Position numbers and translations under genes: made by a program
From: a virus
Strand: one strand, 5' to 3'
Virus record (IMG/VR): IMGVR_UViG_3300017991_000062
Location: 49,078 to 113,077 of that record
DNA: 64,000 nucleotides
Part shown: positions 21,587-61,500 of the stretch, piece by piece
Numbering within the stretch: position 1 is the first letter of the stretch
Layout of the letters: each line of letters begins with the position of its first letter
Notes under the pieces: generated by a model
Seen by the model: only the letters and a program-made list of their open reading frames with translations
The model's database searches: none
Told to the model about the DNA's origin: nothing

Positions 21587-22171
21587 ATGGCACCGTCACT
21601 CGCAGAGATGAGGGACCGCTTCAGCAAGGGCGCTGCCGAGCAGCGTGCGCAGGAGGAGGCCGAGCGCAGGGCACGCGAGGCGGCCGAGGCCAAGCGGAAG
21701 CGCGAGGAGCAGGAGAAGAAGGACCGCGAGCGCAAGGCCGCGGCCGAGGCCGAGGCGAAGCGGCAGCGGGCCAAGCGCGCGGCCGAGGAAGCCCGGCGGG
21801 CCAAGCTCCACGAGGACATGATGAAGGAGGCCGCCAGGCCCGGGAGAGGCCGAGCCGACCTGCGTGACGACGAGTATGAGGTCGAGTTCGACCACCTGGA
21901 GTATCGCCGCCGCGGCTCGCGGAAGTTCTGGATGGGCGCGGTCATCAACGACGGCGCCCGGGGCATCTACGGCTTTGTTCGTCGGTGGGGCCGTATCGGC
22001 ACCACCGGTCAGGGCAAGTGGGTTGACTTCGTGACGGCCGGCCATGCCATCGAGAACGCCGGGAAGGTGATGGACGAGAAGCTCGGCAAGGGCTACAGCC
22101 GGGTCGGGACGGTGCGCTGCGCGGTGCGGCTGGACCCGAGCGGTGCGATTTCATGGCGCCCGCTGCGGTAG
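21587..22171 (+). CDS. WGR-domain protein with N-terminal coiled coil
   Basis: SRKFW...RRWGRIGTTGQ...EKLGKGY. Confidence 0.8.
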   Translation: MAPSLAEMRDRFSKGAAEQRAQEEAERRAREAAEAKRKREEQEKKDRERKAAAEAEAKRQRAKRAAEEARRAKLHEDMMKEAARPGRGRADLRDDEYEVEFDHLEYRRRGSRKFWMGAVINDGARGIYGFVRRWGRIGTTGQGKWVDFVTAGHAIENAGKVMDEKLGKGYSRVGTVRCAVRLDPSGAISWRPLR

Positions 22172-22180
22172 GAGGGGAGA

Positions 22181-22363
22181 ATGAACGACCTGGAGCAGTT
22201 CAAGGCCATGCTCGACGACTGGGGTGTCGACTATGCCAGCGCGGTTAGCTCGGGCGGGGAGGTCGCCCTCCACGTCTACGTCGGTGTCGAGCCCGACGAG
22301 CAGGTGCAGCAGTACGAGTTCAAGGACGGTCGGCTGACCATGTTTGCCGGCCGAAAGGTCTGA
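22181..22363 (+). CDS. Hypothetical protein
   Basis: RBS ggagggg. Confidence 0.5.
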   Translation: MNDLEQFKAMLDDWGVDYASAVSSGGEVALHVYVGVEPDEQVQQYEFKDGRLTMFAGRKV

Positions 22364-22376
22364 CAGGAGGAGCCCG

Positions 22377-22706
22377 ATGCGATATACGAAGTGCTCGAAC
22401 TGCGGACACGCAGTCGCCATCCCCCACGTTCGGCCCAAGGTGCCGTCGCGGCGGATCGAGGGCGTGCCTGGGCTGTGGCGGCCGACGGCCTACGGCGGCG
22501 TCCACCGCGGCGACGAGGTGCTCATCATGCTCAACACCATCACCGGCAAGCGGGCGGCCCGCTACCACCGGGGCTTCGTGGTGAGGAAGTACCAGGGCCT
22601 TGCGATGCGGGTGGTCGGCACCCGGCGCGGCGGTCAGATGTTCGTTGACAAGGCTACGGTGAGCAACGCTGCGGCCATCTTCGTGCGAGTGAGGGACGAG
22701 GGATGA
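22377..22706 (+). CDS. Hypothetical protein
   Basis: RBS aggagga; N-terminal CSNC. Confidence 0.5.
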   Translation: MRYTKCSNCGHAVAIPHVRPKVPSRRIEGVPGLWRPTAYGGVHRGDEVLIMLNTITGKRAARYHRGFVVRKYQGLAMRVVGTRRGGQMFVDKATVSNAAAIFVRVRDEG

Positions 22707-23377
22707 AGCAGGTTCGACGGGTGCGCCCCGAGCTGGCGCCGACCGAAGCGAATGTGATGCGCTTCGTGAACATGATGGCTGACCGCGCTCGCAAGCTGGC
22801 CGCGGCCCAGGGTATCGGGCTCGACGACGCGCGGCAGGAGATCGCGCTCATGGTCATGGAGGCCCTGGACACCTACGAGCCCAGGAAGGGGCCGCTGAAG
22901 TACTGGGTCAAGCTCGTCGTGAGCTGCGAGGTGAGCACCAGAACCACGCGCGAGGGCTGCGCCAAGTCGCGGCCCTGGAACTGGTCGTATGACCAGGTGG
23001 AGGGGTGGCAGCGCGAGCGGAGCCGGGTGGTGTCCGACCTGGGCGTGCTGGATGACCTGCCCGAGCCCGAGGGCGACAGCCCGGCGACCCCCGAGGAGGA
23101 GTTGCTCCAGCGTGAGCGCCGCGAACGCTTCGCGTCGGCTATCATGGCGGCCGAGGCTGCCCTGGTGGAGCAGACCCCGGAGGCCTCCCGCGGCCTGGCG
23201 GCGAGAATCTTCCGAGCCCGCGTGAGCGAGGCCATGAGCAGCGGGAATCAGAAGTACGACGGCCTGACCGAGCACTTGCAAAAGAACCTCGGCGTGAGTC
23301 GCTATGTCGAGCGCCGGCATTGGCACATCGGCCGCCGACTGCTCGAACGCGAGCTGAAGGATCGGGGTGAGCGGTAG
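22703..23377 (+). CDS. Phage RNA polymerase sigma-factor-like protein
   Basis: Region-2-like DDARQEIALMVMEALDTYEPRKGPLKYW; TPEEELLQRE linker; C-terminal HTH-like NLGVSRYVERR. Confidence 0.65.
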   Translation: MKQVRRVRPELAPTEANVMRFVNMMADRARKLAAAQGIGLDDARQEIALMVMEALDTYEPRKGPLKYWVKLVVSCEVSTRTTREGCAKSRPWNWSYDQVEGWQRERSRVVSDLGVLDDLPEPEGDSPATPEEELLQRERRERFASAIMAAEAALVEQTPEASRGLAARIFRARVSEAMSSGNQKYDGLTEHLQKNLGVSRYVERRHWHIGRRLLERELKDRGER

Positions 23378-23384
23378 TTACTCG

Positions 23385-23412
23385 CCCGCTCGGTAGCGCG
23401 ACCCAGAACTGT
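23385..23412 (+). promoter_or_regulatory. Phage-specific promoter motif copy 2
   Basis: CCCG-N17-GAACTGT, intergenic. Confidence 0.65.
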
Positions 23413-23461
23413 ATGAGGACGACAAGGTGCACGGAGCACCACAAGACGAGGAGGTTCTGCG

Positions 23462-24613
23462 ATGGCGAAGAAGGACCCGAAGGACAAAGTCGCGGAGATC
23501 GAGGCGCCGAACTGCCTCGGGTTCCATGACGAGGACCCCACCTGCGACGGCGACCCGGAGGCGGCCGACGCCGAGATGCGCAAGGGGTGCCCGACGCGGG
23601 ATACGTGCATCCGGCTCCAGCAGTACGCGGCCGGCACCGACGAGGATGCCGATGCGCTGCTCAAGGATGCCGGGCTCACCGGGGCGAAGGTGGGCAAGGT
23701 GGACGAGTGGCTGGAGGCCCAGGCCGAGGCCGAGGAGGAGCCCGAGGCCGAGGAGGAGCCCGAGGCCGAGGAGGAGCCCGAGGCCGAGGAGGAGCCCGAG
23801 GCCGAGCCCGAGGAGGAGCCCGAGGAGCCCGAGGCCGAGGAGGAGCCCGAGGAGCCCGAGGCCGAGGAGGAGCCCCCCAAGCCGAAGGCCAAGCCCAAGT
23901 CGAAGTCCAAGTCGAAGTCCAAGAAGAAGAGCGCCTCGAAGAAGGCGGCCAAGCCCGAGGCCAAGCCCAAGGGCAAGGGCAAGCCCAAGGGCAACGGCGG
24001 TGCCCAGGTGCCCGAGGGCGCGCCCGAGTGCTACGCCGACGAGGAGGTGCTCGATCCCAAGAGCGACCAGTGCAAGGCGTGCCCCGTGGCGAAGAAGTGC
24101 CGGACCCGGGTGTACAACGTCCGCGCCGACCGCAAGCGCAAGGAGGCGGCCGGCGACGAGTCCGAGCCGGCCAAGGCCAAGCCCAAGCCGAAGGCCAAGC
24201 CCAAGCCGAAGGCCGAGTCCAAGCCCGAGCCGAAGCCGGCACCCGCGGCCAAGCCCAAGGCGAAGCCCGCGGCCGAGCAGAAGCCGGCACCGACCAAGCC
24301 CAAGCCCAAGGCGCGCAAGGTGAAGGACCCCATCACCGCCATCGCCAAGAGCAAGGGCTGGCCGCTCACCGTCTACTCCGACCACTACGAGGTCAGCCGG
24401 GTCGTCGGCTCCCAGGTGCGCCCGTTCATGCGGGTGTTCACCACCGAGCCCCTCATCCGGGTCAGCGGTCTGCGCGCGAGCCCCGACGTCCTGGCCGGCC
24501 TGGGCGCCGAGGAGAGCGTGGCCCAGGGCTTCGACCACGACCTGTCGCTCACCAGCAAGACGGCGATGGCTCGGTTCCTCAAGGCGCTCGACGCCGAGCC
24601 GAACATCATCTAG
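23462..24613 (+). CDS. Low-complexity acidic/basic protein with two Cys4 modules
   Basis: EEEPEA repeats, PK/AK repeats, PxC[LY]...C modules; RBS gaggagg. Confidence 0.75.
   Translation: MAKKDPKDKVAEIEAPNCLGFHDEDPTCDGDPEAADAEMRKGCPTRDTCIRLQQYAAGTDEDADALLKDAGLTGAKVGKVDEWLEAQAEAEEEPEAEEEPEAEEEPEAEEEPEAEPEEEPEEPEAEEEPEEPEAEEEPPKPKAKPKSKSKSKSKKKSASKKAAKPEAKPKGKGKPKGNGGAQVPEGAPECYADEEVLDPKSDQCKACPVAKKCRTRVYNVRADRKRKEAAGDESEPAKAKPKPKAKPKPKAESKPEPKPAPAAKPKAKPAAEQKPAPTKPKPKARKVKDPITAIAKSKGWPLTVYSDHYEVSRVVGSQVRPFMRVFTTEPLIRVSGLRASPDVLAGLGAEESVAQGFDHDLSLTSKTAMARFLKALDAEPNII
23724..23876 (+). repeat. Imperfect 18-bp coding tandem repeat (gaggccgaggaggagccc; EAEEEP)
   Basis: Visible tandem units. Confidence 0.85.
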
Positions 24614-24620
24614 CGACCCC

Positions 24621-25172
24621 GTGAAGCTCACCGACCTCCGCAAGCGCTACAGCAAGGGCAAGCGCCCGAAGCGCACCCCGGCAGGCTCCAAGCCGAGAGC
24701 GACGGGCCTGCCGGGGCAGAAGGCGTGCCGGAACTGCGACGGGACCGGGAAGGTGCTGGTGGACGGTGGCCCGAGCGGGAGGCCACCGAGGGAAGTCACC
24801 TGCTCGCGTTGCGACGGCACCGGCATCGCGGTCGACCCCGACACGAAGGGTCCGCGCAAGCGGCACGTCGCTATCGAGGAAGAACACCCCGGCCTCGCAG
24901 GTGGTGAGCGCGATGGCACCACAAAGAAAAAGCTCGACCTGAAGAAGATAGCGGAACGCCGGGCCAAGGTGGGGCGTGCGAAGTACACCTTGGTCACCGA
25001 CGTCGCTGGCCGCGAGGATGCGATCCTGCTCTTCGGTAAGCACAAGGGCAGCAAGGTGTCAGCGCTCGCTGCTAGTAGAGAGACGCGGGGATACCTGATG
25101 TGGATGCTCGACGAGGGCTTTGACGATGAGCTGAAGCGGGCGGTGCTCGTTCAGCTCGGGATGGATTCGTGA
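24621..25172 (+). CDS. DnaJ-type Zn finger + FGKHKG (ExoX C-terminal/DUF3820-like) domain protein
   Basis: CRNCDGTG, CSRCDGTG, FGKHKG...GYLMWML. Confidence 0.7.
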   Translation: MKLTDLRKRYSKGKRPKRTPAGSKPRATGLPGQKACRNCDGTGKVLVDGGPSGRPPREVTCSRCDGTGIAVDPDTKGPRKRHVAIEEEHPGLAGGERDGTTKKKLDLKKIAERRAKVGRAKYTLVTDVAGREDAILLFGKHKGSKVSALAASRETRGYLMWMLDEGFDDELKRAVLVQLGMDS

Positions 25173-28100
25173 TGGCGCGCGACCCCTGGGCCAACCTCCA
25201 CGTCCACAGCATGTTCAGCCTCCTGGACGGTGTGGGCTCATATGCCGACTACGCGAAGCGACTCAAGGCCGACCTGGAACGGCGTGACGACGACTCGCCA
25301 GGCGCGCTCGCAGCGACCGAGCACGGTAGCATGAGGGGCATCGTCCAGCTCCAGAAGGCGGCCGACGAGCACGAGCTGAAGCCGGTGTTTGGTGTCGAGC
25401 TGTACGTGTCGGCTGACCACCGGGTCAAGGCCCTCTCCGAGGAGGACAAGGCCCTGGTGAAGGAGCAGCCGGCAAAGGAGCGGCGCTCGTTCCAGGTGGC
25501 CCTGGAAACCTACCGCGGCATCCGGCCGCGCTGGCACCTGACCGCCTGGGCGCTGAACAACGTCGGCCTGCGCAACCTCATCAGGCTGTCGAGCGCGGCC
25601 TGGGTCGACGGGTTCTACTACAAGCCACGGGTCGACTTGAAGTTGCTGGAGCAGTACTCGGAAGGCGTGGCCGTGGGCACCGCCTGCCTCGGCGGCATCC
25701 TCGCAGAGCCGCTGCTCAAGGACGAGCCCGCGCTGGCCGTCGAACACGCCCACTGGCTCCGCGACGTGTTCGGTGACCGCGCCTATGTTGAGCTGATGCC
25801 GAATGGCCTCGCGGATCAGAAGCGGGTGAACCGCGGGCTTCTGAAGCTGGCGCGCTCGGTGGGGCTCACGCCCATCGCCACGGTCGACACCCACTATACG
25901 AAGCCGAAGGACTGGAGGCTTCAAGACACGCTGCTCGCGGTGCAGACCAACGACCGCATGAGCAATCCCCACCGCTGGACCATCCCGGCCCGCGACTTCT
26001 GGTACATGACCGCGGCCGAGGTGCGCAAGCTGTTCCGGCGGAACCACCCGTCGCTGAAGCACAGCACCATCGACAGCCTCATCCGCAACGCTGCCGAGCT
26101 GGCCGGCCGGTGCGAGGCGCGTCTGGAGTTCGACCGCTTCGCTGCCCTCCTGCCGAGCCCCACCGGACGGGACACCACTCCCGAGGAGGACTTCAACGAG
26201 CTGAAGAAGCTGTGCGTCGAGGGCTGGCACTGGCGCGACATCCACACCCGAGCGGCCTGGGTCGCCGGCCGCGACGGACGCAAGACCGAGCGAGTGGTGA
26301 CGCAGTATCGCGAGCGGCTGAAGCGCGAGCTGCGGGTGTTCCGCGACATGAAGTTCTCCCGCTATGCCTTGGTCGTTCGCGACCAAGTGGACTGGGCCAG
26401 AGGCGAGGGCATCCTGGTCGGCCCAGGCCGCGGCAGTGCAGGCGGCAGCCTGGTCGTCTACCTGCTCGGTATCACCAGCATCGATCCCATCGAGCACGAC
26501 CTGCTCTTCGAGCGTTTCATCGCGCCTGGCAGAATCGATCTCCCAGACATCGACATCGACTTCGAGAAGGAACGCCGGCAGGAGGTCATCGCGTACATGG
26601 TCGAGAAGTACGGCCGCGAGCAGACCGCACAGCTCACCACCTACAGCTCGATGAAGGGACGCGGCTGCTTCCGCGACGTGGCGCGGGTGCACGAGGTGCC
26701 ACCGCGCGAGCTGAACGCGACGGCCAGTGCCATCCTCCAACGGCTGCCCGGCCACGAGCGCGAGGACAAGTGCATCGCTGACTCGCTGGCCACCTCGCCC
26801 CAGTGCAAGGCGTTCGCGAAGAAGCGGCCTGTCGTGTTCAGCGTGGCCGAGCGCCTGGAGGGCACCATCCGGCAGGTCGGGCTCCACGCGGGCGGTGTCG
26901 TGGTGGCGCCGATGCCCCTGGACGAGGTGGTGCCCCTGGAGAGCCGTGCTGACAAGGACGGCGGTGGACGGGTGCCGGTCATCGCGCTCGACTACCGTGA
27001 CGCCCAGGAGTGCGGCCTGGTGAAGTTGGACGACCTCGGACTCACGAACCTGACGGTGGTGCGCTACGCCCTGGAGGCTATCGCGGAGCACCACGACGCC
27101 GAGCTGACGCTGGCCGACCTGGAGGCGAGTCACTACGACGACCGCGACGTCCTGGACGCATTCAACGAGCCGTCCAACCTCACCGGCATCTTCCAGTTCG
27201 ACTCGACCAGCATGGTCGGCATCATGCAATTCAAGGTCGAGCGCTTCGAGGACCTGATGGTGCTCAACGCGCTGAACCGGCCCGGCCCGATGCGCAGCGG
27301 CCTGGCGAACATCTACGCGGCGAGGGCCACCGGCAAGAAGAAGCGGAAGAAGGAGCACCCTATCGTCGAGCGGATCACGGCGTCCACCCTGGGCGCCCTG
27401 GTGTACCAGGAGCAGGTCGCGCGGCTGTTCGTGGACCTCGCCGGCTACAGCGCGGGCGATGCGGACAAGATTCGGAAGAAGATCGGCAAGAGCGAGGGTG
27501 AGAAGGCCATCGCCCCCGAGGAGGCCAAGTTCATCGACGGCGCTGTGCGCAACGGCATGAGGGCCGAGGTCGCTGCGAAGCTGTTCAAGCGAGTGTTGAA
27601 GTTCGGCGGCTACGGCTTCAACCGCTCCCACGCTGCCGAGTACTCCGCGCTCGGGTATTGGGAGATGCTGCTCAAGGTGCGCTACCCCGGCCCGTTCTAC
27701 CTGGGCGTCTTGCAGGCGGCCAAGGATGACGCCGACAGAGCCCGCTACATCGAGGCGGCCCACCGCGACGGGGTGGAGGTGCTGACGCCCGACGTGAATG
27801 AGAGCCGGCGCGCCTACGCCCTGTCGGTGTCAGGCTCCATCCGGCCACCGTTGGAGGGCATCAAGGGTGTCGGTCCGAAGGCGAGCCTCGCTCTGCTGGA
27901 GGGGCAGCCCTACACGTCCTTCACCGACCTGGTGAGCCGTACCGACTCCCGGCAGGTGCACCGCGGCATCGTGACCGCCCTCGCCGAGGCTGGCGCTCTG
28001 GACACCATCATCCCGAACCGGCGCTTCGCGGTGGAGAACGCCGAGGAGTTGATGAAGCGGGCTCGCAAGGGCGATGCTGCCGTGGACTTGGACATCGAGG

Positions 28101-28888
28101 TGAGCAAGACGGCGACCGATTGGGACGAGCGCGAGCGCGCCAGGCGTTCTATCGAGTTGGGAGTGTTCGGGCCAGGAGCTAGCATCCTCGACGCCTATGC
28201 CGACCTCTGGGAGGCCATCGAGTCGGCAGGTGTGGAGCTGACCACCCTGGGCGGCATCCAGTGGAACGAGTCCCTGGGCTGGTTCAAGGTGGTGGCACGC
28301 GAGTCGAAGGTCATCACGACCGACGACGGCCGGGTCGCCTCGCTGGTGCTCACGGATGGCACCGGCCCTGACCTGCGCGCTCGGATGGAGAGCAACGAGC
28401 TGGACCGCTACGAGAAGGCGGTGAGCCGTGCCTCCGGGAAGGCCGTGCTGGTGCGGGCCAGCTTCAACGCGAAGACGAAGCAACTGCGAGCCCTGAAGGT
28501 GTACGACGCGGCGGCGCTCCACAAGGCATGGAGAACGGACGAGTTGTCCGACGATGAGGCGCAGGTGTTCGTGAACCCGCTGGCCGCGGTGAAACCGCGG
28601 CATGACCTGCGCAAGTCGCTCGCTGGCGAGCCCTCGCTGCTCAAGTTCGTTGGCCGCGTCGAGGCGATGAAGCTGTGGAAGGATCGCAAGAAGAACACGA
28701 TGGCGTTCTTCGATGTGCAGGCGTACCGCGGCAGCGTGCCGGCGGTGTGCTTCGCGTCGTCGTTCCGTCACTACCGTTCGGACCTGTATGTCGGGGCCGT
28801 GGTGCGGATCGAGTTGATACGAACCGAGGGCGGCGGGTGGGCGCTCGACCATGAGAGCGGCTGCGAGCTGGAGAACATCGGGGAATGA
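25169..28888 (+). CDS. dnaE: DNA polymerase III alpha subunit
   Basis: PHP NLHVHSMFSLLDG, GPGRGSAGGSLV, LLFERF, PDIDIDF, GIFQF, YGFNRSH, C-terminal OB fold MAFF. Confidence 0.97.
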   Translation: MMARDPWANLHVHSMFSLLDGVGSYADYAKRLKADLERRDDDSPGALAATEHGSMRGIVQLQKAADEHELKPVFGVELYVSADHRVKALSEEDKALVKEQPAKERRSFQVALETYRGIRPRWHLTAWALNNVGLRNLIRLSSAAWVDGFYYKPRVDLKLLEQYSEGVAVGTACLGGILAEPLLKDEPALAVEHAHWLRDVFGDRAYVELMPNGLADQKRVNRGLLKLARSVGLTPIATVDTHYTKPKDWRLQDTLLAVQTNDRMSNPHRWTIPARDFWYMTAAEVRKLFRRNHPSLKHSTIDSLIRNAAELAGRCEARLEFDRFAALLPSPTGRDTTPEEDFNELKKLCVEGWHWRDIHTRAAWVAGRDGRKTERVVTQYRERLKRELRVFRDMKFSRYALVVRDQVDWARGEGILVGPGRGSAGGSLVVYLLGITSIDPIEHDLLFERFIAPGRIDLPDIDIDFEKERRQEVIAYMVEKYGREQTAQLTTYSSMKGRGCFRDVARVHEVPPRELNATASAILQRLPGHEREDKCIADSLATSPQCKAFAKKRPVVFSVAERLEGTIRQVGLHAGGVVVAPMPLDEVVPLESRADKDGGGRVPVIALDYRDAQECGLVKLDDLGLTNLTVVRYALEAIAEHHDAELTLADLEASHYDDRDVLDAFNEPSNLTGIFQFDSTSMVGIMQFKVERFEDLMVLNALNRPGPMRSGLANIYAARATGKKKRKKEHPIVERITASTLGALVYQEQVARLFVDLAGYSAGDADKIRKKIGKSEGEKAIAPEEAKFIDGAVRNGMRAEVAAKLFKRVLKFGGYGFNRSHAAEYSALGYWEMLLKVRYPGPFYLGVLQAAKDDADRARYIEAAHRDGVEVLTPDVNESRRAYALSVSGSIRPPLEGIKGVGPKASLALLEGQPYTSFTDLVSRTDSRQVHRGIVTALAEAGALDTIIPNRRFAVENAEELMKRARKGDAAVDLDIEVSKTATDWDERERARRSIELGVFGPGASILDAYADLWEAIESAGVELTTLGGIQWNESLGWFKVVARESKVITTDDGRVASLVLTDGTGPDLRARMESNELDRYEKAVSRASGKAVLVRASFNAKTKQLRALKVYDAAALHKAWRTDELSDDEAQVFVNPLAAVKPRHDLRKSLAGEPSLLKFVGRVEAMKLWKDRKKNTMAFFDVQAYRGSVPAVCFASSFRHYRSDLYVGAVVRIELIRTEGGGWALDHESGCELENIGE

Positions 28889-28894
28889 CCTCGG

Positions 28895-28922
28895 CCCACT
28901 TGCTGCGGCGATTGGGAACTGT
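28895..28922 (+). promoter_or_regulatory. Phage-specific promoter motif copy 3
   Basis: CCCA-N17-GAACTGT, intergenic after dnaE. Confidence 0.6.
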
Positions 28923-28949
28923 GGTGAGGCAACAGAAAGGGGGTCCGTA

Positions 28950-29444
28950 GTGGACCAGGTAATCGTGAACATCCGTGGCGAAGAGGTGGACGTCAGCGGG
29001 GAGCTGCGCATCGGCGGCGACCTCGGCAAGGAGATGAGCCGGCTGCCCGGTCAGGTCGCCTACTACGGCGGCGCGCTCGCCGAGGCCCAGGCGCTCGAAG
29101 CCCAGGTCACCGCCCAGTACCGGGCCTGGCGAGCGAAGCAGATCGAGGCCGTGCTGGAGAGCGAGCCCAAGCTGGCCGAGTGGAAGGTCAAGGCCAAGCT
29201 GGAGGCGCTGCCCCAGTTCATGCAGCACAAGGAGGCCATCGCCAGGACGGAGAAGGTCGTCCGCGACCTGTGGGCCGTCTACGAGGCGTTCCTGCGCAAG
29301 GCCGACATGCTGCGCAGCAAGGGCGCCCGGCAGCGTGCCGAGCTGGAGGCCAGCGGCGGCATCAGCACCAGCCTCGACCCCGACGAGAAGGCAACCCGGG
29401 CCGGCAAGGTGGTCAAGCGCCACCGCGCCCGCCCGAAGAAGTAG
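28950..29444 (+). CDS. UvsY-like recombination mediator
   Basis: Helical; LAEWKVKAKLEA..Y/F...AFLRKADML pattern; precedes SSB and RecA. Confidence 0.55.
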   Translation: MDQVIVNIRGEEVDVSGELRIGGDLGKEMSRLPGQVAYYGGALAEAQALEAQVTAQYRAWRAKQIEAVLESEPKLAEWKVKAKLEALPQFMQHKEAIARTEKVVRDLWAVYEAFLRKADMLRSKGARQRAELEASGGISTSLDPDEKATRAGKVVKRHRARPKK

Positions 29445-29464
29445 GACCAGAAGGAGGAACCGGC

Positions 29465-44171: not shown

Positions 44172-45250
44172 TGCTGGTGCGCCTGCCGTGGGAGTGGGAA
44201 GTCGCCATCTGCTGCGCCCTCAACCTCGCCGAGATGTGGTCGCTCCGACCGGAGCAGCGGCCATCGAGCCAGGAGATTTCGGACGACGAGGGGCTCGGCA
44301 GGACGCCCCACTACCTGTCGCGCTCGATCCTGCCCAACCTGGTCAAGGCCGGGGTGCTCACTCACCAGCGGAAGCAGCCGATGGGCTACCGGCTCGCTCG
44401 TACCCCGTCGCGCATCACGCTCTATGACATCGTCGCCGGGGTGTTCAACTACCGTGGCGAGGGCGTCGTCAACCACCTGTCCAAGCGCCTGCCGAGGGCA
44501 GAGATCCGACGCTACCGCTCTTCGCGCGGCCTGCGCTGCCCCGGGGAGTATGCCTTCGGCGGCCTGGACGAGTTCGTGACTGCCTACCTGAAGCGGATTA
44601 CGCTGTCGAAGATGCTCGCGGCCAACCTGGGCCTGACGGCGAAGGTGCTGTATCGGGACGCCTATGCGAAGTCCCGCTACCCCGTGTCGCTGCTCGACAG
44701 GGTGCGCCCGGTGCTCTTGGAGTTCTGTCCGCTGGTCGAGAATTGGAGAGGCTCCATCATCGCCTGGGCGCACAGCCCGGTCGCTGACCCGCTGCTCAAC
44801 GGGTTCGAGATGTGGATGCGCGCTCTTCACAAGCGCTACCTGACCGCACCGCGCCGTATCGGGTCGCAGCAACTCTACGAGCTGCGCCTGGAGGTGCAGA
44901 GCTTCGCAGGGCGAACCGAGCCTGGCGCCACCTTCGGGAAGTACCGGATCTGGGAACGCAACCTCGCGACTCACCACTGCCACGACCGGGCCGGCTACAT
45001 CGCCGCGGTCCAGGTGCAGCCGTGGCGAGGCTACGAGTCCTTCCAGGTGTTCTGCACCGACAGGGAGCGGCTACTCGACTTCGCTGCGTCGGTGCGCTTC
45101 AAGGACACGGACGGCATCACCGAGGATGGCCCAGGCGCGCCGCTGCCACCGGCTGACGTGGGCCAGCTCACCGCGGATGGATGCTGGAGCTACATCGACC
45201 GGCGCAGGGACGCGAACGACATCTACCGGGGGCTGGCAGGTGAAGGCTGA
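44171..45250 (+). CDS. Rrf2-family wHTH fused to an unknown C-terminal region
   Basis: HYLSRSILPNLVKAGVL...GYRLAR.P..ITLYDIV; LKRITLSKML. Confidence 0.7.
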   Translation: MLVRLPWEWEVAICCALNLAEMWSLRPEQRPSSQEISDDEGLGRTPHYLSRSILPNLVKAGVLTHQRKQPMGYRLARTPSRITLYDIVAGVFNYRGEGVVNHLSKRLPRAEIRRYRSSRGLRCPGEYAFGGLDEFVTAYLKRITLSKMLAANLGLTAKVLYRDAYAKSRYPVSLLDRVRPVLLEFCPLVENWRGSIIAWAHSPVADPLLNGFEMWMRALHKRYLTAPRRIGSQQLYELRLEVQSFAGRTEPGATFGKYRIWERNLATHHCHDRAGYIAAVQVQPWRGYESFQVFCTDRERLLDFAASVRFKDTDGITEDGPGAPLPPADVGQLTADGCWSYIDRRRDANDIYRGLAGEG

Positions 45251-46328
45251 CGAGCTACGACGGCGCTTCGCCAAGCGGCCCTCCTGCTTCGGCCAGTACG
45301 AGGAGCACCGGGAGGGGGACGGTTGCCTCGTGTGCGCATCGTTTGGCGAGTGCCTGGAGGAGAGTGCTGGTGAAGCCGAGGAGCCCGATCCCGAGATAGT
45401 CGAAGCGCAGTGCGGTCACTGCCGCCACTTCCAACTCGAAATCGATGGCGGCCCTGTCGGGCACTGCACCGGCCACGGCAAGGCCGTCTTCTCGGCGGAT
45501 ACCCCGTGCCCCACGTTCCACCCTGCGGATGTCCCTCCTATGCTGCGGGCCGATGCCCGGTGCAAGGACTGCGCGCACCTACAGTTCGACGGGCATGCTC
45601 TCCTCAAGTTCTGTGAGCTGCGGTCGATGGACCGCCACGGCGACGACAGAGCGTGCGACCGCTTCAACCCGCGCGAGCCGAAGCATGCTGCCGGTCAGAC
45701 CCCGATCAACCTGCCGGGGTGTTTCGCCACCTACAACCCGGGGCGCACGGACGGCAAGGACTGCACCGACTGTGAGTTCAGTCGGCAGTGCGAGGGCGTG
45801 CGCCGCAGAGCTTTCGAGCACCCGCCACCGAAGCGGGTTATCAAGTTCGACCGTGGCGAGTTGGACGACGAGGCCATCGAGCGTGTCAGGGAGTTTGTCG
45901 AGCAGCAGAGGCGGGGGATGTCCGATGCGCTTGTGGTCCCGAAGGGGATGCTAGCAGAACCGATCCCGCCTGTCAGCGCGCCAGAGCCAGAGCCCGACAA
46001 AGAGCCGCGCGAAGAGACGGCCATGTTCAAGTCGCGGGCTGGCGACGAGAGCTACGTCGTGCCGGCTATCGCGCTCACTAGCCGTGCCCAGGGCACAGCC
46101 CACAAGATAGCGAGCTACGCTTGCGGCGACTACCCTGACCCGGCCGTGCTTCAGCTCGCGAACTACGCGATCCGGTGCCTCGCTGCCACGTCCGACAGCG
46201 TAGATGCCGCGGCACAGCGGCTCGATGTGGTGGTGCAGCGGCAAGTTCCCGCCACGACATCGCAGCCGCACCGGCAGCGGCAGGTCGTGTCGATCCTGGC
46301 CAGCGTTATCAAGACCAGAGCCCTGTGA
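45240..46328 (+). CDS. Multi-Cys-module protein
   Basis: Two PxCF..CxxC modules plus two CxxCxH..C..C modules; GTG start overlapping the previous gene. Confidence 0.65.
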   Translation: MKADELRRRFAKRPSCFGQYEEHREGDGCLVCASFGECLEESAGEAEEPDPEIVEAQCGHCRHFQLEIDGGPVGHCTGHGKAVFSADTPCPTFHPADVPPMLRADARCKDCAHLQFDGHALLKFCELRSMDRHGDDRACDRFNPREPKHAAGQTPINLPGCFATYNPGRTDGKDCTDCEFSRQCEGVRRRAFEHPPPKRVIKFDRGELDDEAIERVREFVEQQRRGMSDALVVPKGMLAEPIPPVSAPEPEPDKEPREETAMFKSRAGDESYVVPAIALTSRAQGTAHKIASYACGDYPDPAVLQLANYAIRCLAATSDSVDAAAQRLDVVVQRQVPATTSQPHRQRQVVSILASVIKTRAL

Positions 46329-49363: not shown

Positions 49364-49840
49364 ATGAGTGCAACGCACGGGCCGGAAGCTCCCCCGGTCA
49401 TCGCGCTGTGGTGGCGACCAGGCGCGCTGTACCTGCCCAGGGGAGCCGAACAGACCATCGGGAGCATCAACATCGCGGCCCAGGCCGCGGTCGCGGAGGC
49501 GCTCGAACTGGGCGGCGAGGCGGGGTGGGCGAAGATGTGCACCAACCTCGCCTCGCTCGCCAGGCTGCGGCGCAGCCTGATGAAGGAGGACGGGATGCCG
49601 AACGGGACGCTGTCGCTGCGCGAGTTGCTTGAGGGTGCCTCGGGCGCCATGTTCGACACGGTGGTTCGCGAGACGGCGGCCGACACCGGCCTCAACGAGG
49701 ACCTGGTGCGCCGCTCCTTCGACCCACCTGCGTCGTCCGACCCGCCCGAGCTGACCGCGGCCCGGGAGCGCGTCGTGCTGTACTTCAGCCACGGCAGCCG
49801 CGGGGAGGCTCGGACTGCGATGCGGGGCGAGTCTGACTGA
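49364..49840 (+). CDS. Hypothetical protein
   Basis: RBS ggagagg; coupled to the next gene. Confidence 0.5.
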   Translation: MSATHGPEAPPVIALWWRPGALYLPRGAEQTIGSINIAAQAAVAEALELGGEAGWAKMCTNLASLARLRRSLMKEDGMPNGTLSLRELLEGASGAMFDTVVRETAADTGLNEDLVRRSFDPPASSDPPELTAARERVVLYFSHGSRGEARTAMRGESD

Positions 49841-50394
49841 TGCCTACCCTGGACGAGCTGCGGAGTCTGTTCAGCAAGGCCAGGGATGCCGAGCGGCTTG
49901 CAGCTCTGGACGATGGTGAGTCGCTCGTCAGTGCCGAGTTCACCGCGGCGTTCGCCGTTGCCGATACCGACAAGACGGTCTTGATGCGCCTGGTGCTACT
50001 TACCGAGCGCGTTCTTGAGAAGCTGCCCCGCGACCGTGCTGCGGACCCAGAAGAGGAGATGATCGCAGTGAAGTTGGCGGCCCGCGAGAAGCTGCGCGAG
50101 CTGACCGGCGTCGGCTACCCGGCGAGCGGCCTGGTCCCGGAGCAGGTCACGAACCTGCCCGACTTCGATGGGCCGCCCCAGATCCGGGTCGAGCTGCGGG
50201 TGCCTCGTGTGCTCGCCGACCAGGTGAAGGCCATCCTCGGCCGCAAGGAGCGCGACGAGGGTATCCACTTCAACGACGAGCCGAGCTACACCTGTCCACA
50301 CTGCGGGAAGACGTCACACCACCCGGTCGACGTCGAGCGCAAGTTCTGCGGCGCCTGTGGCCGCTTTGAAGAAGCACTGGAGGGGATCGAATGA
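49840..50394 (+). CDS. Hypothetical protein with C-terminal Zn ribbon
   Basis: CPHCG.TS.HP.DV...FCGAC. Confidence 0.6.
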   Translation: MPTLDELRSLFSKARDAERLAALDDGESLVSAEFTAAFAVADTDKTVLMRLVLLTERVLEKLPRDRAADPEEEMIAVKLAAREKLRELTGVGYPASGLVPEQVTNLPDFDGPPQIRVELRVPRVLADQVKAILGRKERDEGIHFNDEPSYTCPHCGKTSHHPVDVERKFCGACGRFEEALEGIE

Positions 50395-51647: not shown

Positions 51648-51650
51648 CCG

Positions 51651-56610: not shown

Positions 56611-56646
56611 TTCGAGCCGAGCTGAATTCCTCAAGTATCTACCTCC

Positions 56647-56866: not shown

Positions 56867-57238
56867 ATGGACACGGCGAAGACCTGGGACGTGAACTGGA
56901 CGGACTTCCGCTTCGGCAGCCGTACCCTGAAGGCCGAGGCCCGCACCGACGTCAGCCGCCCGGGGTTGCACCTCGCCCCGGTGCTGCTCCGCGGTGAGCG
57001 CGGCGCCCTCTACGCCCTGGTCCGCACCGACGAGGGCAGCGCGGCATTCCACGCCCTGAACCTGCGCACCGGCAAGGCCGACCTCCGCTGCGTCTGGTTC
57101 GTGCGGCCGATGGCGCCGGTCGACGGTGTGATGCAGTTCGACATCCGGCGCGTCGGGCATGCCGAGTGCCCGTTGCGGCCGACCCCGTTCATGTTCGGCA
57201 ACGCCTCCCGGGCCGGCGCGCTGCCGGCCGCGGCGTAG
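56867..57238 (+). CDS. Hypothetical early protein
   Basis: RBS ggag; alternative start at 56834. Confidence 0.55.
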   Translation: MDTAKTWDVNWTDFRFGSRTLKAEARTDVSRPGLHLAPVLLRGERGALYALVRTDEGSAAFHALNLRTGKADLRCVWFVRPMAPVDGVMQFDIRRVGHAECPLRPTPFMFGNASRAGALPAAA

Positions 57239-57248
57239 GGAGTAGACG

Positions 57249-58706
57249 ATGACGACGACCCCGAAGTGGATGGTGTTCTCCTACGGGATGGGTGTGGACA
57301 GCACGGCGATCCTCCTTCGCTACCTGGCCGAGCCCCACACCTGCCCGGTCCCGCTGGACCACGTCATTCTCCTCACGGCCCAGGTGGGCAACGAGTTCCC
57401 CACGACGGGCGAGCTGGTCACCGAGCACATCCTGCCCAGGCTGCGCGAGGCCGGCGTCCGGTTCGTGCAGGTGGGCAAGGCCGGCCCGAGCGGCGCCGCG
57501 GCCGAGGTGCTGGAGGACAGCACGAGCCCTGCCGAGTGCCACCTCGCAGGCGCCTACCCCATCGCCGCCGAGATGAAGGGCGCGGCGACCATCCCGACGA
57601 CCGGGGGCTGCCGCAAGTGCTCGCTCAAGTTCAAGGGCGCCGTGCTGGACCACTGGGTCGCGCGCGAGCTTGGCGACGAGCCCTACCTCCACGTCATCGG
57701 CTTCAACGCCGACGAGCTGCGTCGGGTCGAGAAGGACCAGGTGTTCGGCAAGGCTGGCTCCCGGGTGGCCTGCTACCCGCTGGTCGAGTGGGGCTGGGAC
57801 CGGGCCAAGTGCCACGACTACATCACCGAGCAGACCGGCGTCCGCTGGCTCAAGAGCGCGTGCTCGTTCTGCCCCTTCAGCCAGGGCAAGGGCACGGTCG
57901 TTGACCGCTACCTGGCCGAGCCCGAGGCCGCGGCCGAGGCCCTGGTCATCGAAGAGGTGGCGCTGCGCTTCAACCCCCGGATGAAGCTGTTCAAGAGCCG
58001 CACACTGCGCGGCGTCCTGGAGGCCAGCGGCAACACCGAGGCGCTCGCCTTGGCCGACTCGATGCTGGACGCGGTGCCCTGGGCGGTCTTCCGCATGCGC
58101 CGGGCGATGATGCCGGCCAAGGCGAACCCGGCCAAGCGCGGCTTCGGCATGCGGGCCATTGAGCGCACCACCGACACCATGACCCGCGCCGAGGCCGAGG
58201 CCACCCTGGGCGGCGCCCGGCAGGTGGTGCTCGACACGGGCGAGGGCTTCCCGCGGCGCGAGGAGTCCCTGGTCGCTGCCCCGGCCTGGGTCCAGGAGAA
58301 GGCTGGCCGCTACGGCATCGAGCGCTTCACCGAGCTGTGGAACGACGCCGCCGCGGCCCAGGGTGAGCCCCAGGTCGCCACCACGGCCGAAACGACCCAG
58401 GCCCCGACCCAGGCAGAGGCCGAGGCTCCTGCGGCTCGCAGGGCGGGCGTGGTCCTGCCCAAGGACGAGCGCGATGCCCTGGGCGAGGCCGCCCGGGTGG
58501 CGCTCGCGGCAGCCGGCCCGCTCACGGCCGCCGAGGTGCACGCGGCCATCACTCGCCAGGCCCCGGCCGAGCTAAAGACCTGGGCAGCCCAGGACCACGG
58601 CTGGCAGTACACGCGGGTCTTCGATAGCTTGCGCCGGCTCGCCAAGGCCGGCGACCTGACCGCGACCAAGACCGGACGGACGACCCGCTACGGCGTGGCC
58701 GTCTAG
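57249..58706 (+). CDS. PP-loop (PAPS reductase/adenine-nucleotide alpha-hydrolase-like) enzyme with C-terminal wHTH
   Basis: SYGMGVDS, CS.KFK, IGFNADE..R, YPLVEWGWDR..C, KSACSFCPF. Confidence 0.75.
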   Translation: MTTTPKWMVFSYGMGVDSTAILLRYLAEPHTCPVPLDHVILLTAQVGNEFPTTGELVTEHILPRLREAGVRFVQVGKAGPSGAAAEVLEDSTSPAECHLAGAYPIAAEMKGAATIPTTGGCRKCSLKFKGAVLDHWVARELGDEPYLHVIGFNADELRRVEKDQVFGKAGSRVACYPLVEWGWDRAKCHDYITEQTGVRWLKSACSFCPFSQGKGTVVDRYLAEPEAAAEALVIEEVALRFNPRMKLFKSRTLRGVLEASGNTEALALADSMLDAVPWAVFRMRRAMMPAKANPAKRGFGMRAIERTTDTMTRAEAEATLGGARQVVLDTGEGFPRREESLVAAPAWVQEKAGRYGIERFTELWNDAAAAQGEPQVATTAETTQAPTQAEAEAPAARRAGVVLPKDERDALGEAARVALAAAGPLTAAEVHAAITRQAPAELKTWAAQDHGWQYTRVFDSLRRLAKAGDLTATKTGRTTRYGVAV

Positions 58707-58712
58707 AACTGT
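58684..58712 (+). promoter_or_regulatory. Phage-specific promoter motif copy 6 (N18 spacer)
   Basis: CCCG-N18-GAACTGT just before the RBS ggagggagg. Confidence 0.55.
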
Positions 58713-58727
58713 ATGGAGGGAGGCACA

Positions 58728-59741
58728 GTGGACCTCAACGAATTCCGACACCGCTACCGCAAGGGGCGCCCCAGGCCGAAGCCGAAGAAGAAGCCCAGGC
58801 CGCACCTCAACGGGTCGGCGCAGGGTCGCATCTTCACCCTGGCCGAGGAGGCGTGCGTCCAGGCCGCGGCGAGCCTCGCCCACGTCGGGACGGCGCTCAT
58901 CGACAACCGGGAGACCGACCAGTGGCGCATCCGCTTCAGGGTGCCGATGGGCACTGAGCTGACCGCGGCGAACGAGGAGGCCGCCCGGCTCATGGGTGAC
59001 GCCCCGAACGGCGCCCCGGAGACCCTGGGCGAGCTGGCGGCCGGGCTCGCCCTCGCCCGGTCGCACGACGACGGGTACGTCCCGACCGCCGCGGACCACG
59101 CGACCAGCCGCATCCAGAACCCGGAGTACAACTCGTCTCGCAACGCCCTCGTCTTCCGGGTGCACGGGCCTCGCCGCTTCATCGCCAGCATGTCGGAGCC
59201 AAACGACCCCATCCGCGGCAAGGACGCCGAACGAGGCGTGAGGCTCCCGCACTCCGTCCTCCCGGCCGGTCGCTTCCCCAAGGGCGCCCACCGGGCCGAC
59301 AGGCGCATCCCGGAGATCGAGGCCACGACCAGGCTCGCAGCCGCGGCGAACATCGGCACGCTCCGGGGCATCAACGGCTTCGGCGGCGAGTGGGACCACC
59401 TGCGCTTCATCACGGTCAGCGTGCTCAAGAGCCGGTGGGAGCAGGCCCTCGGCGCCCTGGAACTCAAGGAACTCCGCGAAAACCCTCGGGCCAAGGACGC
59501 CGCCGCCAGGCGCAAAAAGAGGCCTCGAAAGCTGGCCTGCGCCATCACGGCCAAGCTCTTCGACGAGGCCGGCACCCTGGGCAGCACCTACGAGATCCCG
59601 CCCGGTGGCGCTGCGCCCCTGGCCTACACCGTTCCGACCGAGCACCTGCCCGGCTACATCACCTTCAAGGTTTACGGCCCGAAGGCGATGCTGTCGAAGC
59701 TGACTGCCCTGCGCCGGCTGCCACACCACCGGCCGAGCTGA
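58728..59741 (+). CDS. Hypothetical protein with shared N-terminal motif
   Basis: MDLNEFRHRYRKG; strong RBS. Confidence 0.65.
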   Translation: MDLNEFRHRYRKGRPRPKPKKKPRPHLNGSAQGRIFTLAEEACVQAAASLAHVGTALIDNRETDQWRIRFRVPMGTELTAANEEAARLMGDAPNGAPETLGELAAGLALARSHDDGYVPTAADHATSRIQNPEYNSSRNALVFRVHGPRRFIASMSEPNDPIRGKDAERGVRLPHSVLPAGRFPKGAHRADRRIPEIEATTRLAAAANIGTLRGINGFGGEWDHLRFITVSVLKSRWEQALGALELKELRENPRAKDAAARRKKRPRKLACAITAKLFDEAGTLGSTYEIPPGGAAPLAYTVPTEHLPGYITFKVYGPKAMLSKLTALRRLPHHRPS

Positions 59742-60649
59742 TGAAGCTGCGCGACCTGCGACGGCTGTTCAGGCGCGGCCGGTGGAAGCCGGCCGAGCCC
59801 GAGCCAAAGAAGGCGGCAGTCGTCACCAAAGAGGACGCGAAGAGGCTCGCGCATGCGTTCGAGCTGGCCAAGGCCATCCGTGCGGAGAACCCACACCACC
59901 CGTCACGCGGCATCCCGAAGGCCCTCCCGCTCGCGAGGGGCATCGAGGAGCTATCGCGGCGCCTGGGCGTCACCCTGGACACGGCCGCGACCGCGCTCGA
60001 CACGGAGATCCGCGCAGCTCTCGACGCTGTTCCAGGGGCGCGCCTGCCGAAGCTGGAGGTGCTGGTCACGGTCGCGGCGACCAGGACGCTGACCGAGGCC
60101 GGTGTGAAGATGCCTCCGACGCCGACGAAGGTCATGCGCAAGGAGTTCATCATCATCGACGACATCCCAGGCCCAGGCGGGGTCAAGTTCAGAGACCCCG
60201 ACGCGCTGCCGCCACACCCGGCCATCGAGAGCGGGCCTATTGAAGACCCGGAGGAGCGTGAGCGGGAGGTGCGGGCGGCCCTGAAGCGCTGGCACGAGCG
60301 CGAGCTGACCGACAAGGGCGTCGAGCGATTCAGCGTCCACCTCCCGGCCAGCGCTGTCGAGGAGGCGACCAGCCGGCTCGCGTCAAAGGTCGGTTGGCCG
60401 CCTCCACCGCCGAAGCCAGACGACATCGAGATCCGGCCGATGACCAGAGAGGAGATCGAGGAGGTCGCCAGGCTTTACGACATCGACCGGCCACCCGTGA
60501 AGCCGGTGAAGCTGAAGAAGGCCAGGACGAGCGAGGAGCTGATGCGTGATATCGAGGCCGGCATTGCGGGCATCCCTGACGAGGTGGTGGACCGCGTCAT
60601 GGCCAGGGCTATTTTCGGAGACGACAACCCAGAGGGTGACGACGAATGA
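59741..60649 (+). CDS. Hypothetical protein with shared N-terminal motif
   Basis: MKLRDLRRLFRRG; TGATG coupling. Confidence 0.65.
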   Translation: MKLRDLRRLFRRGRWKPAEPEPKKAAVVTKEDAKRLAHAFELAKAIRAENPHHPSRGIPKALPLARGIEELSRRLGVTLDTAATALDTEIRAALDAVPGARLPKLEVLVTVAATRTLTEAGVKMPPTPTKVMRKEFIIIDDIPGPGGVKFRDPDALPPHPAIESGPIEDPEEREREVRAALKRWHERELTDKGVERFSVHLPASAVEEATSRLASKVGWPPPPPKPDDIEIRPMTREEIEEVARLYDIDRPPVKPVKLKKARTSEELMRDIEAGIAGIPDEVVDRVMARAIFGDDNPEGDDE

Positions 60650-61500
60650 AGCTCAACGAGCTGCGCCACCGCTACCGCAAGGGCAGGCCCAAGCGTCGGC
60701 CACGGCCAAGCCCCCGGGCCTGGATAGCAGAAGAGGCGAAGAAGGGCCGCCCTCTGAACGTGGCCGAGGCCACCCGGGCAGCAGAGCAGCTCTCGGCAGC
60801 GTTCGGCATCACCAAGGACCACGCCTCCGGTATACTGGCGCGGGTGGTGAACGGTCTGGAGCGAGACAAAGGCGGGAAGGAGTATGTGACGGCGGCCGAG
60901 CTGGAAGCGACAACCGAGGGGTTGATACTCACGAGCAGCCCGAGGCCCGACAGCCGCCGCGGCAGGCGCAAGGCAGACCTGGAGACCCTGAAGCGGGCCA
61001 GGGCAGACAGACGGGAGAGCAGGAAGACCAGACGCACCAGAGCCACGTTCCCAGGGCTGCGCCACCCGAGCAAGGCCGCGGAGGAGCTACTGCTAGCAGC
61101 GGACGGCCGCTGGACCAGGAGCAGCACCGACGCAGCGACCGCGGTGCTGACGCTGGACCTGTGGCCCAGGAAAGCGATGCTGGAAAGCCTGCGCGAGCTG
61201 AACAGGAAGTATCGACCAAGGCCACTGGGCAGGATAGTGTCGAGGACCGTGGAGGACACGATAGCCACGCTGGCGATACGGCACCTGGTCAAGCTGGCCG
61301 GGCTACGACTCGCAGCCCCGACGACGATGACCAGGGTAGCCGGCATCCGAGCAGAGGAACACCCGAGACACCCGGAGCGAGGACACATCCAGCTCACCTA
61401 TACGGGGAGCCCGAAGCAGGTAGCTGAAGCAGCGCACGCGCTGAAGGTGCTACAGGGAAGAAAGGCTCTAGATGACCTCACGAGCACACCCGCAGAGTAG
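60646..61500 (+). CDS. Hypothetical protein with shared N-terminal motif, atypical codons
   Basis: MKLNELRHRYRKG; ATGA overlap. Confidence 0.6.
   Translation: MKLNELRHRYRKGRPKRRPRPSPRAWIAEEAKKGRPLNVAEATRAAEQLSAAFGITKDHASGILARVVNGLERDKGGKEYVTAAELEATTEGLILTSSPRPDSRRGRRKADLETLKRARADRRESRKTRRTRATFPGLRHPSKAAEELLLAADGRWTRSSTDAATAVLTLDLWPRKAMLESLRELNRKYRPRPLGRIVSRTVEDTIATLAIRHLVKLAGLRLAAPTTMTRVAGIRAEEHPRHPERGHIQLTYTGSPKQVAEAAHALKVLQGRKALDDLTSTPAE

Follow-up and report, generated by a model that had tools for sequence, protein, structure and literature searches.

A candidate portable docking tag: one short peptide at the N-terminus of eight unrelated phage proteins

Introduction

Why should unrelated proteins, encoded by genes scattered over one phage genome, open with the same short peptide, and to what might that peptide bind? 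The question is raised by a 64,000-nt stretch of a 113-kb phage (G000), positions 49,078 to 113,077 of IMG/VR record IMGVR_UViG_3300017991_000062, which we call the window. An initial annotation had proposed that about seven of its proteins share a tag that sends diverse cargo to one destination, either into the capsid or onto a hub such as the replisome. Phages rarely have targeting or docking peptides of this shared kind, and such peptides are useful once their action is understood; the T4 capsid-targeting sequence (CTS), for instance, has since served to load proteins into phage heads.

Results

All seven N-termini are confirmed by translation (Table 1), and in each of the seven genes the motif L-x-[DE]-[LMFI]-R-x-[RL]-[FY]-x-[KR]-G begins 2–4 codons past the start codon. 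Searched in all six frames, the strict pattern first proposed has exactly seven sites in the window, which are these seven genes, and one extra site elsewhere in the genome (g314, at position 314, outside the window; VKLDELRKRYARGRPRPK); all matches lie on the plus strand, 2–4 codons after a start codon, and eight unrelated proteins of this phage open with the same 11-residue tag. Enrichment at N-termini is stronger than first reported: with a leave-one-out PSSM every held-out tag ranks first among 190,962 six-frame positions, and with a second PSSM, built from 16 tag sites in three phages, the true tags score 21–35 bits against a background maximum of ~16 bits. All 16 of these tags are N-terminal. 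Within the tag, positions 4, 7 and 11 are hydrophobic, positions 5/6 are acidic and Arg8 is invariant.

Table 1. Tagged genes of the window and the neighboring replication and AAA+/vWA genes (window coordinates).
Feature	Position	Strand	Start codon	Description
AAA_5 (MoxR/CobS-like) ATPase	18067..19374	+		Pfam AAA_5; conserved across the super-group; candidate partner machinery
CobT-like vWA protein	19376..21490	+		Pfam CobT_C, 91 bits; intact MIDAS signature (DxSGS)
Tagged protein 1	21587..22171	+	ATG	Tag MAPSLAEMRDRFSKG, charged coiled-coil linker, WGR domain (Pfam WGR, 52.7 bits); gene directly follows the CobT-like vWA gene
Tagged protein 2	24621..25172	+	GTG	Tag, basic Pro-rich linker, CxxCxGxG zinc finger, ExoX-like_C (FGKHKG)
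DnaE-type DNA polymerase III alpha	25169..28888	+
Tagged protein 3	45240..46328	+	GTG	Tag MKADELRRRFAKR, Cys-rich module protein (18 Cys)
Tagged protein 4	49840..50394	+	ATG	Tag MPTLDELRSLFSKA, acidic body, C-terminal zinc ribbon
Tagged protein 5	58728..59741	+	GTG	Tag MDLNEFRHRYRKG, RPRPKPKKKPRP linker, ORFan body
Tagged protein 6	59741..60649	+	ATG	Tag MKLRDLRRLFRRG, ORFan body; start overlaps the upstream stop codon
Tagged protein 7	60646..61500	+	ATG	Tag MKLNELRHRYRKG, RPKRRPRPSPR linker, ORFan body; start overlaps the upstream stop (ATGA)

The bodies behind the tags are clearly different, as had been claimed for at least four of them, with no similarity in any pair by BLASTP or shuffle-calibrated Smith–Waterman alignment; these comparisons, and the lack of hidden ExoX-like_C domains (see below), leave a paralogous family with diverged bodies without support, while the tandem trio (w58728–w60646) may be a very old duplication. 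The ORFan bodies return nothing from PHROGs, Pfam, NCBIfam or the ESM Atlas (for tagged protein 5, no Pfam, PHROG or NCBIfam match). Among the 16 cargo proteins, 12 have a pI of at least 9, and several carry WGR or zinc-finger modules. The DNA upstream of the tagged genes is not conserved and the invariant arginine is encoded by CGC, CGA, CGG and AGG, which shows selection on the tag peptide; a DNA- or RNA-level element was rejected on the same grounds.

Looser candidates were discarded: w53131 scores at background level, w26012 and w28040, both internal to the polymerase, do so too and align to ordinary DnaE elements, and a RecA-internal match in G004 was rejected with them (background score or ordinary DnaE/RecA element).

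Orthologues in related phages keep the tag, as the annotation's proposal demanded. Two related phages (G001 and G002, polymerase 62–68% identical) carry four tags each, and G000 carries eight; across orthologues at 38–42% identity M1, L5, E7, R9, R11, F12 and K14 are invariant. The WGR-bearing tagged protein 1 has tagged orthologues in G001, G002, P0003 and P0004. Tagged protein 3 has a partial homologue (G002_96181) that is likewise tagged, and its gene is missing from G001 at the syntenic site. Tagged protein 4 has a positional orthologue (G001_33885), set between orthologous flanks, that keeps the tag though the two bodies are no more alike than shuffled sequence (z = 0.3), and in the P0007 orthologue the tag is 13/13 identical in a protein that is 61% identical overall, the linker beside it having changed. 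With purifying selection on a peptide borne by such unrelated bodies, the proposed portability of the module is well founded.

Among GenBank phages this phage has no close relative, and Streptomyces phage Danzina has a DnaE but lacks the tagged-gene arrangement. As negative controls, 155 kb of unrelated loci with WGR genes and 250 kb of loci with exonuclease-type ExoX-like_C genes contain no N-terminal tags. In 1.36 Mb of vWA loci, clear tags are confined to this phage super-group; another five matches anchored at a start codon, in four other loci (L140, L155, L162 and L166), look spurious or doubtful. The tag-bearing phages span 46–75% GC, and their hosts probably differ. With tag plus linker as the query, a search of 5.8 billion proteins returned nothing beyond that query or a single orthologue. 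The tag is not covered by any Pfam or NCBIfam model, and the motif strings are absent from the literature searched. The motif thus appears to be undescribed so far. Within that literature the annotation was right that the consensus is not described for any system, but the motif does head a large protein family.

This family is the one to which tagged protein 2 belongs. Its C-terminal domain has the FGK[HY]xG...YLxW pattern of PF20600 and scores 80.5 bits with a domain HMM made here, as the only copy in the genome; the NCBIfam ExoX C-terminal match is weak, and Pfam reports nothing for it (w24621) at E < 0.1. A profile search with its orthologues retrieved 262 relatives, and proteins retrieved in this way pass PF20600. 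The family has a layout of helix, disordered linker and ExoX-like_C domain; it is widespread and has no name. In 76 of 150 diverse representatives the tag lies at residues 3–8, and in only two is it found elsewhere; in a 26-sequence alignment of 21% mean identity, Arg8 is one of five invariant columns. On this basis, judged from sequence, small ExoX-like_C proteins, a large family, typically begin with the tag, which is not peculiar to this phage; it is this assignment that is new here. The other tagged proteins carry no ExoX-like_C domain: each genome has one match at E < 10, so their bodies are not hidden paralogues.

AlphaFold2 models place a short helix at residues 3–11 (or 4–11), followed by a low-confidence linker. 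In tagged protein 2 the predicted helix spans residues 3–11 and the C-terminal domain reaches a pLDDT of 95–98. One model gives the helix a pLDDT of 87 with ~110 low-confidence residues between it and the domain, and a minimal family member gives about 65 (pTM 0.57). The ExoX-like_C models have no Foldseek match in the PDB.

The tagged ExoX-like_C gene immediately precedes DnaE in 8/8 phages of one syntenic super-group; in the window the two genes overlap by 4 nt, at the stop of the tagged gene and the start of DnaE. All eight tag-bearing loci also encode the AAA_5 and CobT-like vWA proteins, the latter with a DxSGS MIDAS whose residues are invariant in all five genomes; in five of five complete genomes the vWA gene is followed directly by a tagged gene, despite three different bodies, with a gap of only 2 nt in G003. 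The cases of this vWA adjacency are not independent observations, because they come from one syntenic lineage, and of 80 phage loci that have a CobT-like vWA gene most have no tag. The gene of tagged protein 5 opens a tagged operon of three translationally coupled genes, preceded by a GAACTGT promoter-like motif that is found in the non-structural arm only. The virion arm has no tagged gene. A phage β-clamp (PF00712) is matched in G000–G002, and not in G003 (82% complete) or G004 (91% complete).

Discussion

Because eight unrelated proteins share the tag, and because it is also the conserved N-terminus of a polymerase-adjacent family, it is probably a portable docking peptide. In its full form, to which we give about even credence, this reading holds that the tag folds on binding and ties whatever body follows it to one shared partner, likely in the replication/DNA-metabolism module; the motif, its confinement to N-termini, its conservation and portability, the predicted helix and the gene contexts are observations, whereas both the binding as such and the identity of the partner are what we infer. 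The tag would be a short N-terminal amphipathic helix (about residues 3–13) on a flexible linker, and its original carrier a small helix–linker–ExoX-like_C protein whose gene is translationally coupled to the phage DnaE. In this lineage the 5′ segment, tag and linker, may have been copied onto the WGR gene, the Cys-module gene and several fast-evolving ORFan genes, whose products would then bind the same partner as the original carrier. That partner would most likely be found in the phage replication/DNA-metabolism module, the best candidates being the CobS/CobT-like AAA+/vWA motor, whose downstream neighbor is always tagged, and the DnaE polymerase complex.

Several observations sit less easily with docking. 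It does not need a strictly N-terminal position, and a tag that is terminal in 16 cases out of 16 can be read at least as readily as a targeting signal, degron or AAA+ handle. Furthermore, most loci with CobT-like vWA genes are untagged, nothing evident ties the variable ORFan cargo of the right arm to replication, and the well-predicted helix in one model could reflect packing in cis on the ExoX-like_C domain.

The strongest of the alternatives, a more specific form of the docking idea which we nonetheless consider rather unlikely, makes tag and linker the client handle of a phage CobS/CobT-like MoxR-type AAA+/vWA motor that remodels, loads or activates tagged DNA-binding proteins. The acidic residue 5 or 6 would bind the vWA MIDAS and the free N-terminus would be offered to the ATPase; clients of AAA+ machines are usually laid out in just this way, with a tag at one end and a flexible region for initiation behind it. 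Co-occurrence of both motor genes with every tag-bearing locus, the invariant MIDAS and the constantly tagged neighbor of the vWA gene all suit such a handle, and MoxR/VWA pairs grip their clients via the VWA domain (bioRxiv 10.64898/2026.10.09.757910). [quoted passage not shown]

Capsid targeting of the T4 type, in which the tag would bind the scaffold core and the tagged proteins would be packed in proheads and injected with the DNA, the tag possibly being cleaved, is in our judgment improbable. The strict N-terminal position speaks for it, as does cargo that is diverse, fast-evolving, mostly basic and variable in number between genomes. The targeting determinants of the T4 CTS lie at residues 4 and 7 (PMC9026906), which are conserved hydrophobic positions of the tag. 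The context, from which capsid loading as first proposed gains nothing, points elsewhere: in all eight phages the carrier that is ancestral and best conserved is coupled to DnaE in translation, a second conserved carrier lies in the replication module, and both the tagged genes and the promoter-like motif before the tagged operon keep to the non-structural side of the genome. No conserved protease site is apparent behind the tag; an [LIA]-x-[DE] triplet does lie inside it, not at its end. The gene context therefore favors docking in the replication module, the other destination first proposed, over T4-style targeting, with the partner so far a candidate.

We also weighed, and find quite improbable, that the helix binds the ExoX-like_C domain itself, either within one molecule, as an autoinhibitory lid, or in trans, in which case the DnaE-attached ExoX-like_C protein would be the hub for the other tagged proteins. 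Helix and domain do occur together in about half of the family representatives (76/150), with a similar degree of conservation, each tag-bearing genome has exactly one such domain, and the helix is predicted with confidence in one model despite the long disordered stretch before the domain. The helix of the minimal member is, however, predicted less confidently, and ExoX-like_C proteins fused to an exonuclease have no helix.

An N-terminal degron or other translation-linked signal, by which all tagged proteins would have the same lifetime or be under common expression control, is very unlikely. Host ClpX and related proteases recognize N-terminal motifs, and the strict position and the flexible linker behind the tag would suit them, but the motif is kept across phages with probably different hosts, which argues against dependence on one host factor, and the synonymous codon variation excludes an mRNA-level role. 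Finally, a Tat signal was rejected, since what comes after the tag is a charged or Pro-rich linker and not a hydrophobic h-region.

The tag matters in two settings, as the head of a large uncharacterized DnaE-coupled family and as the common element of a changing set of 4–8 proteins in one lineage. Its partner, once named, could suggest a role for the small ExoX-like_C proteins and possibly explain the phage cobS/cobT-like genes, and the tag gives a potential functional handle on about six ORFans. If the client-handle alternative were true, the phage replication module would hold a modular tag-and-motor system, in which one motor serves a changeable set of DNA-binding proteins.

Comparison with known systems

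The T4 CTS of IPI–III and Alt is likewise a peptide of ~10 residues at the extreme N-terminus, with key hydrophobics at 4 and 7, found on mostly basic, fast-evolving proteins that are otherwise unrelated and whose genes lie scattered over the genome; here, too, a short N-terminal peptide is common to otherwise unrelated proteins of one phage. The two have no sequence homology, and for our tag cleavage and packaging are putative. Unlike the CTS, it has its conserved carriers in the replication module, one translationally coupled to DnaE, and beyond this phage it stands at the head of a very large family.

The ExoX-like_C / QSregVF_b domain (PF20600, PF12843; FGK[HY]xG ... YLxW) is the same domain that ends the tag's putative ancestral carrier. 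The Pfam entry covers the C-terminal domain alone, and in the literature searched we found no description of the N-terminal helix, the helix–linker–domain layout or the DnaE coupling for this family.

Replisome hub motifs (the β-clamp-binding QL[SD]LF, the PIP box and the SSB C-terminal tail) are also short tethered peptides that recruit many proteins to one hub, are likewise found on DNA-metabolism proteins and are portable between bodies. The tag differs in its helical pattern (i, i+3, i+7), central arginine, lack of glutamine and strictly N-terminal position. A β-clamp-binding motif (QL[SD]LF or QLxLxL) was rejected as its identity, since all 16 tags lack Gln where the motif requires it and their hydrophobic residues are spaced differently; a clamp motif at the internal DnaE site is unsupported as well, the tag-like segment preceding the expected DnaE clamp site. 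The phage β-clamp is detectable in three of five tag-bearing genomes; in the other two a host clamp could serve instead.

To our knowledge, CobS/CobT-like genes are common in phages with no role known for them there, and MoxR/VWA remodelers are not known to use such a client handle. As in the MoxR-type AAA+/VWA remodelers CobST–CobN, CbbQO–Rubisco and NorQD, an AAA_5 gene here adjoins a VWA gene with an intact MIDAS, and a conserved gene neighbor could be the client. The known clients are enzymes, whereas the candidates here are a set of proteins with a common peptide tag.

A start-anchored peptide motif on unrelated proteins

The virus record is a single sequence of 113,077 bp (67% GC) whose right 64 kb form the window, and almost all genes lie on the + strand. 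Baseplate genes occupy the left part of the window and are followed by the replication module: a helicase, DnaB, a Toprim primase, an AAA_5 ATPase, a CobT-like vWA protein, a DnaE-type polymerase, SSB, RecA, and SbcCD. The seven N-termini that the initial annotation had singled out were all found as described, three of them starting with GTG. In a six-frame translation of the window, the strict pattern of this “tag,” L-x-[DE]-[LMFI]-R-x-[RL]-[FY]-x-[KR]-G, matches exactly those seven sites and no others; outside the window there is one further match, at genome position 314 (VKLDELRKRYARG...). Every match is on the + strand, 2–4 codons past a start codon.

To avoid circularity, a PSSM was trained on seven sites and the eighth was held out and sought genome-wide; in 8/8 trials the held-out tag scored highest of the 190,962 windows. 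With a later PSSM built on 16 sites from three phages, tags score 21–35 bits and all other positions 16.4 bits or less. This clean separation, and the start anchoring of all strict matches, bears out the proposed N-terminal enrichment over background. Two kinds of candidate were dropped: the gene w53131 (named, like others below, by its start in the window), considered as a looser member, falls on the background side of the score split, and two polymerase-internal matches fall below it and align with conserved DnaE elements of the Thermus enzyme.

No pairwise similarity is detectable among the bodies, that is, the remainders of the tagged proteins. In tagged genes the DNA ahead of the start codon shows no conservation, and the invariant arginine of the tag is encoded by four different codons, so it is the peptide that is constrained.

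Conservation in related phages

No close relative was found among GenBank phages. IMG/VR holds two, G001 (107 kb, polymerase 68% identical) and G002 (108 kb, 62%), each with four tags, every one N-terminal. As had been expected of orthologues, the tag is kept throughout three orthologous groups from these phages and the phage under study (G000): the WGR protein, the zinc-finger/FGKHKG protein before DnaE, and the Cys-module protein. It is also retained in metagenomic WGR orthologues of ~40% identity; the remaining tagged proteins have no homologues in the two sister genomes. G000_98917 and G001_33885 have orthologous genes on both flanks; the similarity of their bodies does not exceed that of shuffled sequence (z = 0.3), with 9/14 tag residues identical. 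Similarly, the protein P0007, an orthologue of G001_38547 (61% identical), has identical first 13 residues and an altered adjoining linker. The tag is therefore the part of these proteins under most constraint, acting like a module of its own. The original proposal, a portable tag carried by diverse cargo, holds.

The ExoX-like_C family and predicted structure

An exhaustive profile search of the DnaE-adjacent tagged protein against 1.84 billion representative proteins gave 262 relatives, which have in common a C-terminal domain, Pfam ExoX-like_C (PF20600; QSregVF_b also matches). Among the best 150 of the 262, each standing for one cluster at 50% identity, the motif starts at residue 3–8 in 76 and elsewhere in only 2. 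The family has two tag flavours, MPTLDELRxRF... and MPSLEELRRWLRGEDVEG, and Arg8 of the tag is among only five invariant columns in a 26-sequence alignment (mean identity 21%). All members looked up are unnamed metagenomic proteins, and no occurrence of the motif strings turned up in the literature that could be searched. The tag long predates the phage under study and has a far wider distribution. In each of the five complete genomes (G000–G004) the ExoX-like_C domain occurs exactly once, which rules out hidden paralogues among the other tagged proteins.

Given the family alignment, AlphaFold2 predicts residues 3–11 to be helical, followed by a long low-confidence linker and a very confident C-terminal domain (pLDDT 95–98), for which no resembling solved structure was found. 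The tag helix has a pLDDT of 87 in w24621, the DnaE-adjacent protein, versus ~65 in a minimal 93-aa family member (model pTM 0.57), so that the models do not consistently support a helix packed in cis against the domain. On a helical wheel L4, L7, R8, and F11 would share one face, with acidic 5/6 and basic 9/10/13 opposite, a pattern typical of a helix folding upon binding.

Gene neighborhood

Further members of the syntenic super-group were reached through an ExoX-like_C protein (G003, 74% GC; G004, 62% GC) or the vWA protein (loci L090, L091, and L095). Their common gene order is helicase, DnaB, primase, AAA_5, CobT-vWA, a variable stretch, ExoX-like_C, DnaE, SSB. The tagged ExoX-like_C gene is directly 5′ of DnaE in 8/8 members, which form one super-group and are not phylogenetically independent; in G000 the stop codon of this gene and the start codon of DnaE overlap. 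The gene directly after vWA is tagged in 5/5 complete genomes, again a single syntenic group rather than independent cases, and its body differs: WGR in G000–G002, an unrelated protein of 212 aa in G004, and in G003 the ExoX-like_C protein itself. All five vWA proteins keep the MIDAS motif without variation. The tag is missing from most other vWA loci of phages, so the tag–vWA association is specific to this lineage.

The more distant L090 and L091 have two tagged ExoX-like_C proteins apiece, one two genes past vWA with a Cys module, the other directly 5′ of DnaE with a diverged tag (MSTKEQIRRMLQKG). A weak Sigma70_r2 match (E = 0.003) lies between the two conserved tagged genes. The phage-encoded beta clamp has orthologues in G001 and G002, and PF00712 was not detected in G003 and G004. 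Directly 3′ of DnaE, a 197-aa protein without Pfam or NCBIfam match occurs throughout the super-group (37–57% identity); this protein could be an accessory subunit of the polymerase and is a possible tag partner.

The tagged operon and companion modules

The ORFan-bodied w58728, w59741, and w60646 make up a tight operon with overlapping stop/start codons (TGATG, ATGA). Directly 5′ of it are a promoter-like motif, RCCCR-N17-GAACTGT, confined to the non-structural arm, and a strong GGAGG ribosome-binding site. The w58728 and w60646 tags are very similar in DNA too, which suggests a recent copying of the 5′ end. Were the genome circularly permuted, the eighth tagged gene would lie close to this right-end cluster.

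Several tagged proteins have a Cys mini-module, P-x-C-F-G ... C-x2-C ... C, in common: the Cys-module proteins of G000 and G002, the second ExoX-like_C protein in both L090 and L091, and the WGR orthologue of G002, which carries it as an insertion between tag and WGR domain. The mini-module may be another portable unit travelling with the tag. Right behind several tags are AT-hook-like linkers (RGRPRPK, KGRPRPKPKKKPRP, KGRPKRRPRP), suggesting that the minor groove of DNA is contacted beside the putative docking helix.

Locations of further features
Feature	Location	Remark
Eighth tagged protein	L045:314-907 (genome 314-907)	VKLDELRKRYARGRPRPK, 197 aa; outside window, far left end of record
Beta sliding clamp	L045:1667-2839 (genome 1667-2839)	PF00712, 30.5 bits; outside window
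Sigma70_r2 match	window 22703-23377	
197-aa protein	window 28851-29444	
Tagged operon	window 58700-61500	
Tagged ExoX-like_C pair	L090:2705-3373 and L090:9802-10278	
Tagged ExoX-like_C pair	L091:11267-11968 and L091:18567-19049	
Cys mini-module proteins	window 45240-46328; L042:15552-16409; L090:2705-3373	
AT-hook-like linkers	window 24660-24700, 58767-58810, 60685-60730	

Possible function of the tag

The coupling of the ancestral carrier to DnaE, with a second conserved carrier after vWA, favors docking on a component of the replication module, to which we would give about an even chance. Its most specific version, in which the tag would serve the CobS/CobT-like AAA+/vWA motor as a handle on its clients, is doubtful. 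Capsid loading, the other destination first proposed, is improbable, gene context giving it no support. That the tag binds the ExoX-like_C domain itself is quite improbable too, and a role as degron is very improbable.

Capsid loading by a shared sequence on diverse proteins does have a clear precedent in the capsid targeting sequence of T4, the only sequence that its diverse internal proteins have in common, its determinants being residues 4 and 7 (PMC3012670, PMC9026906).
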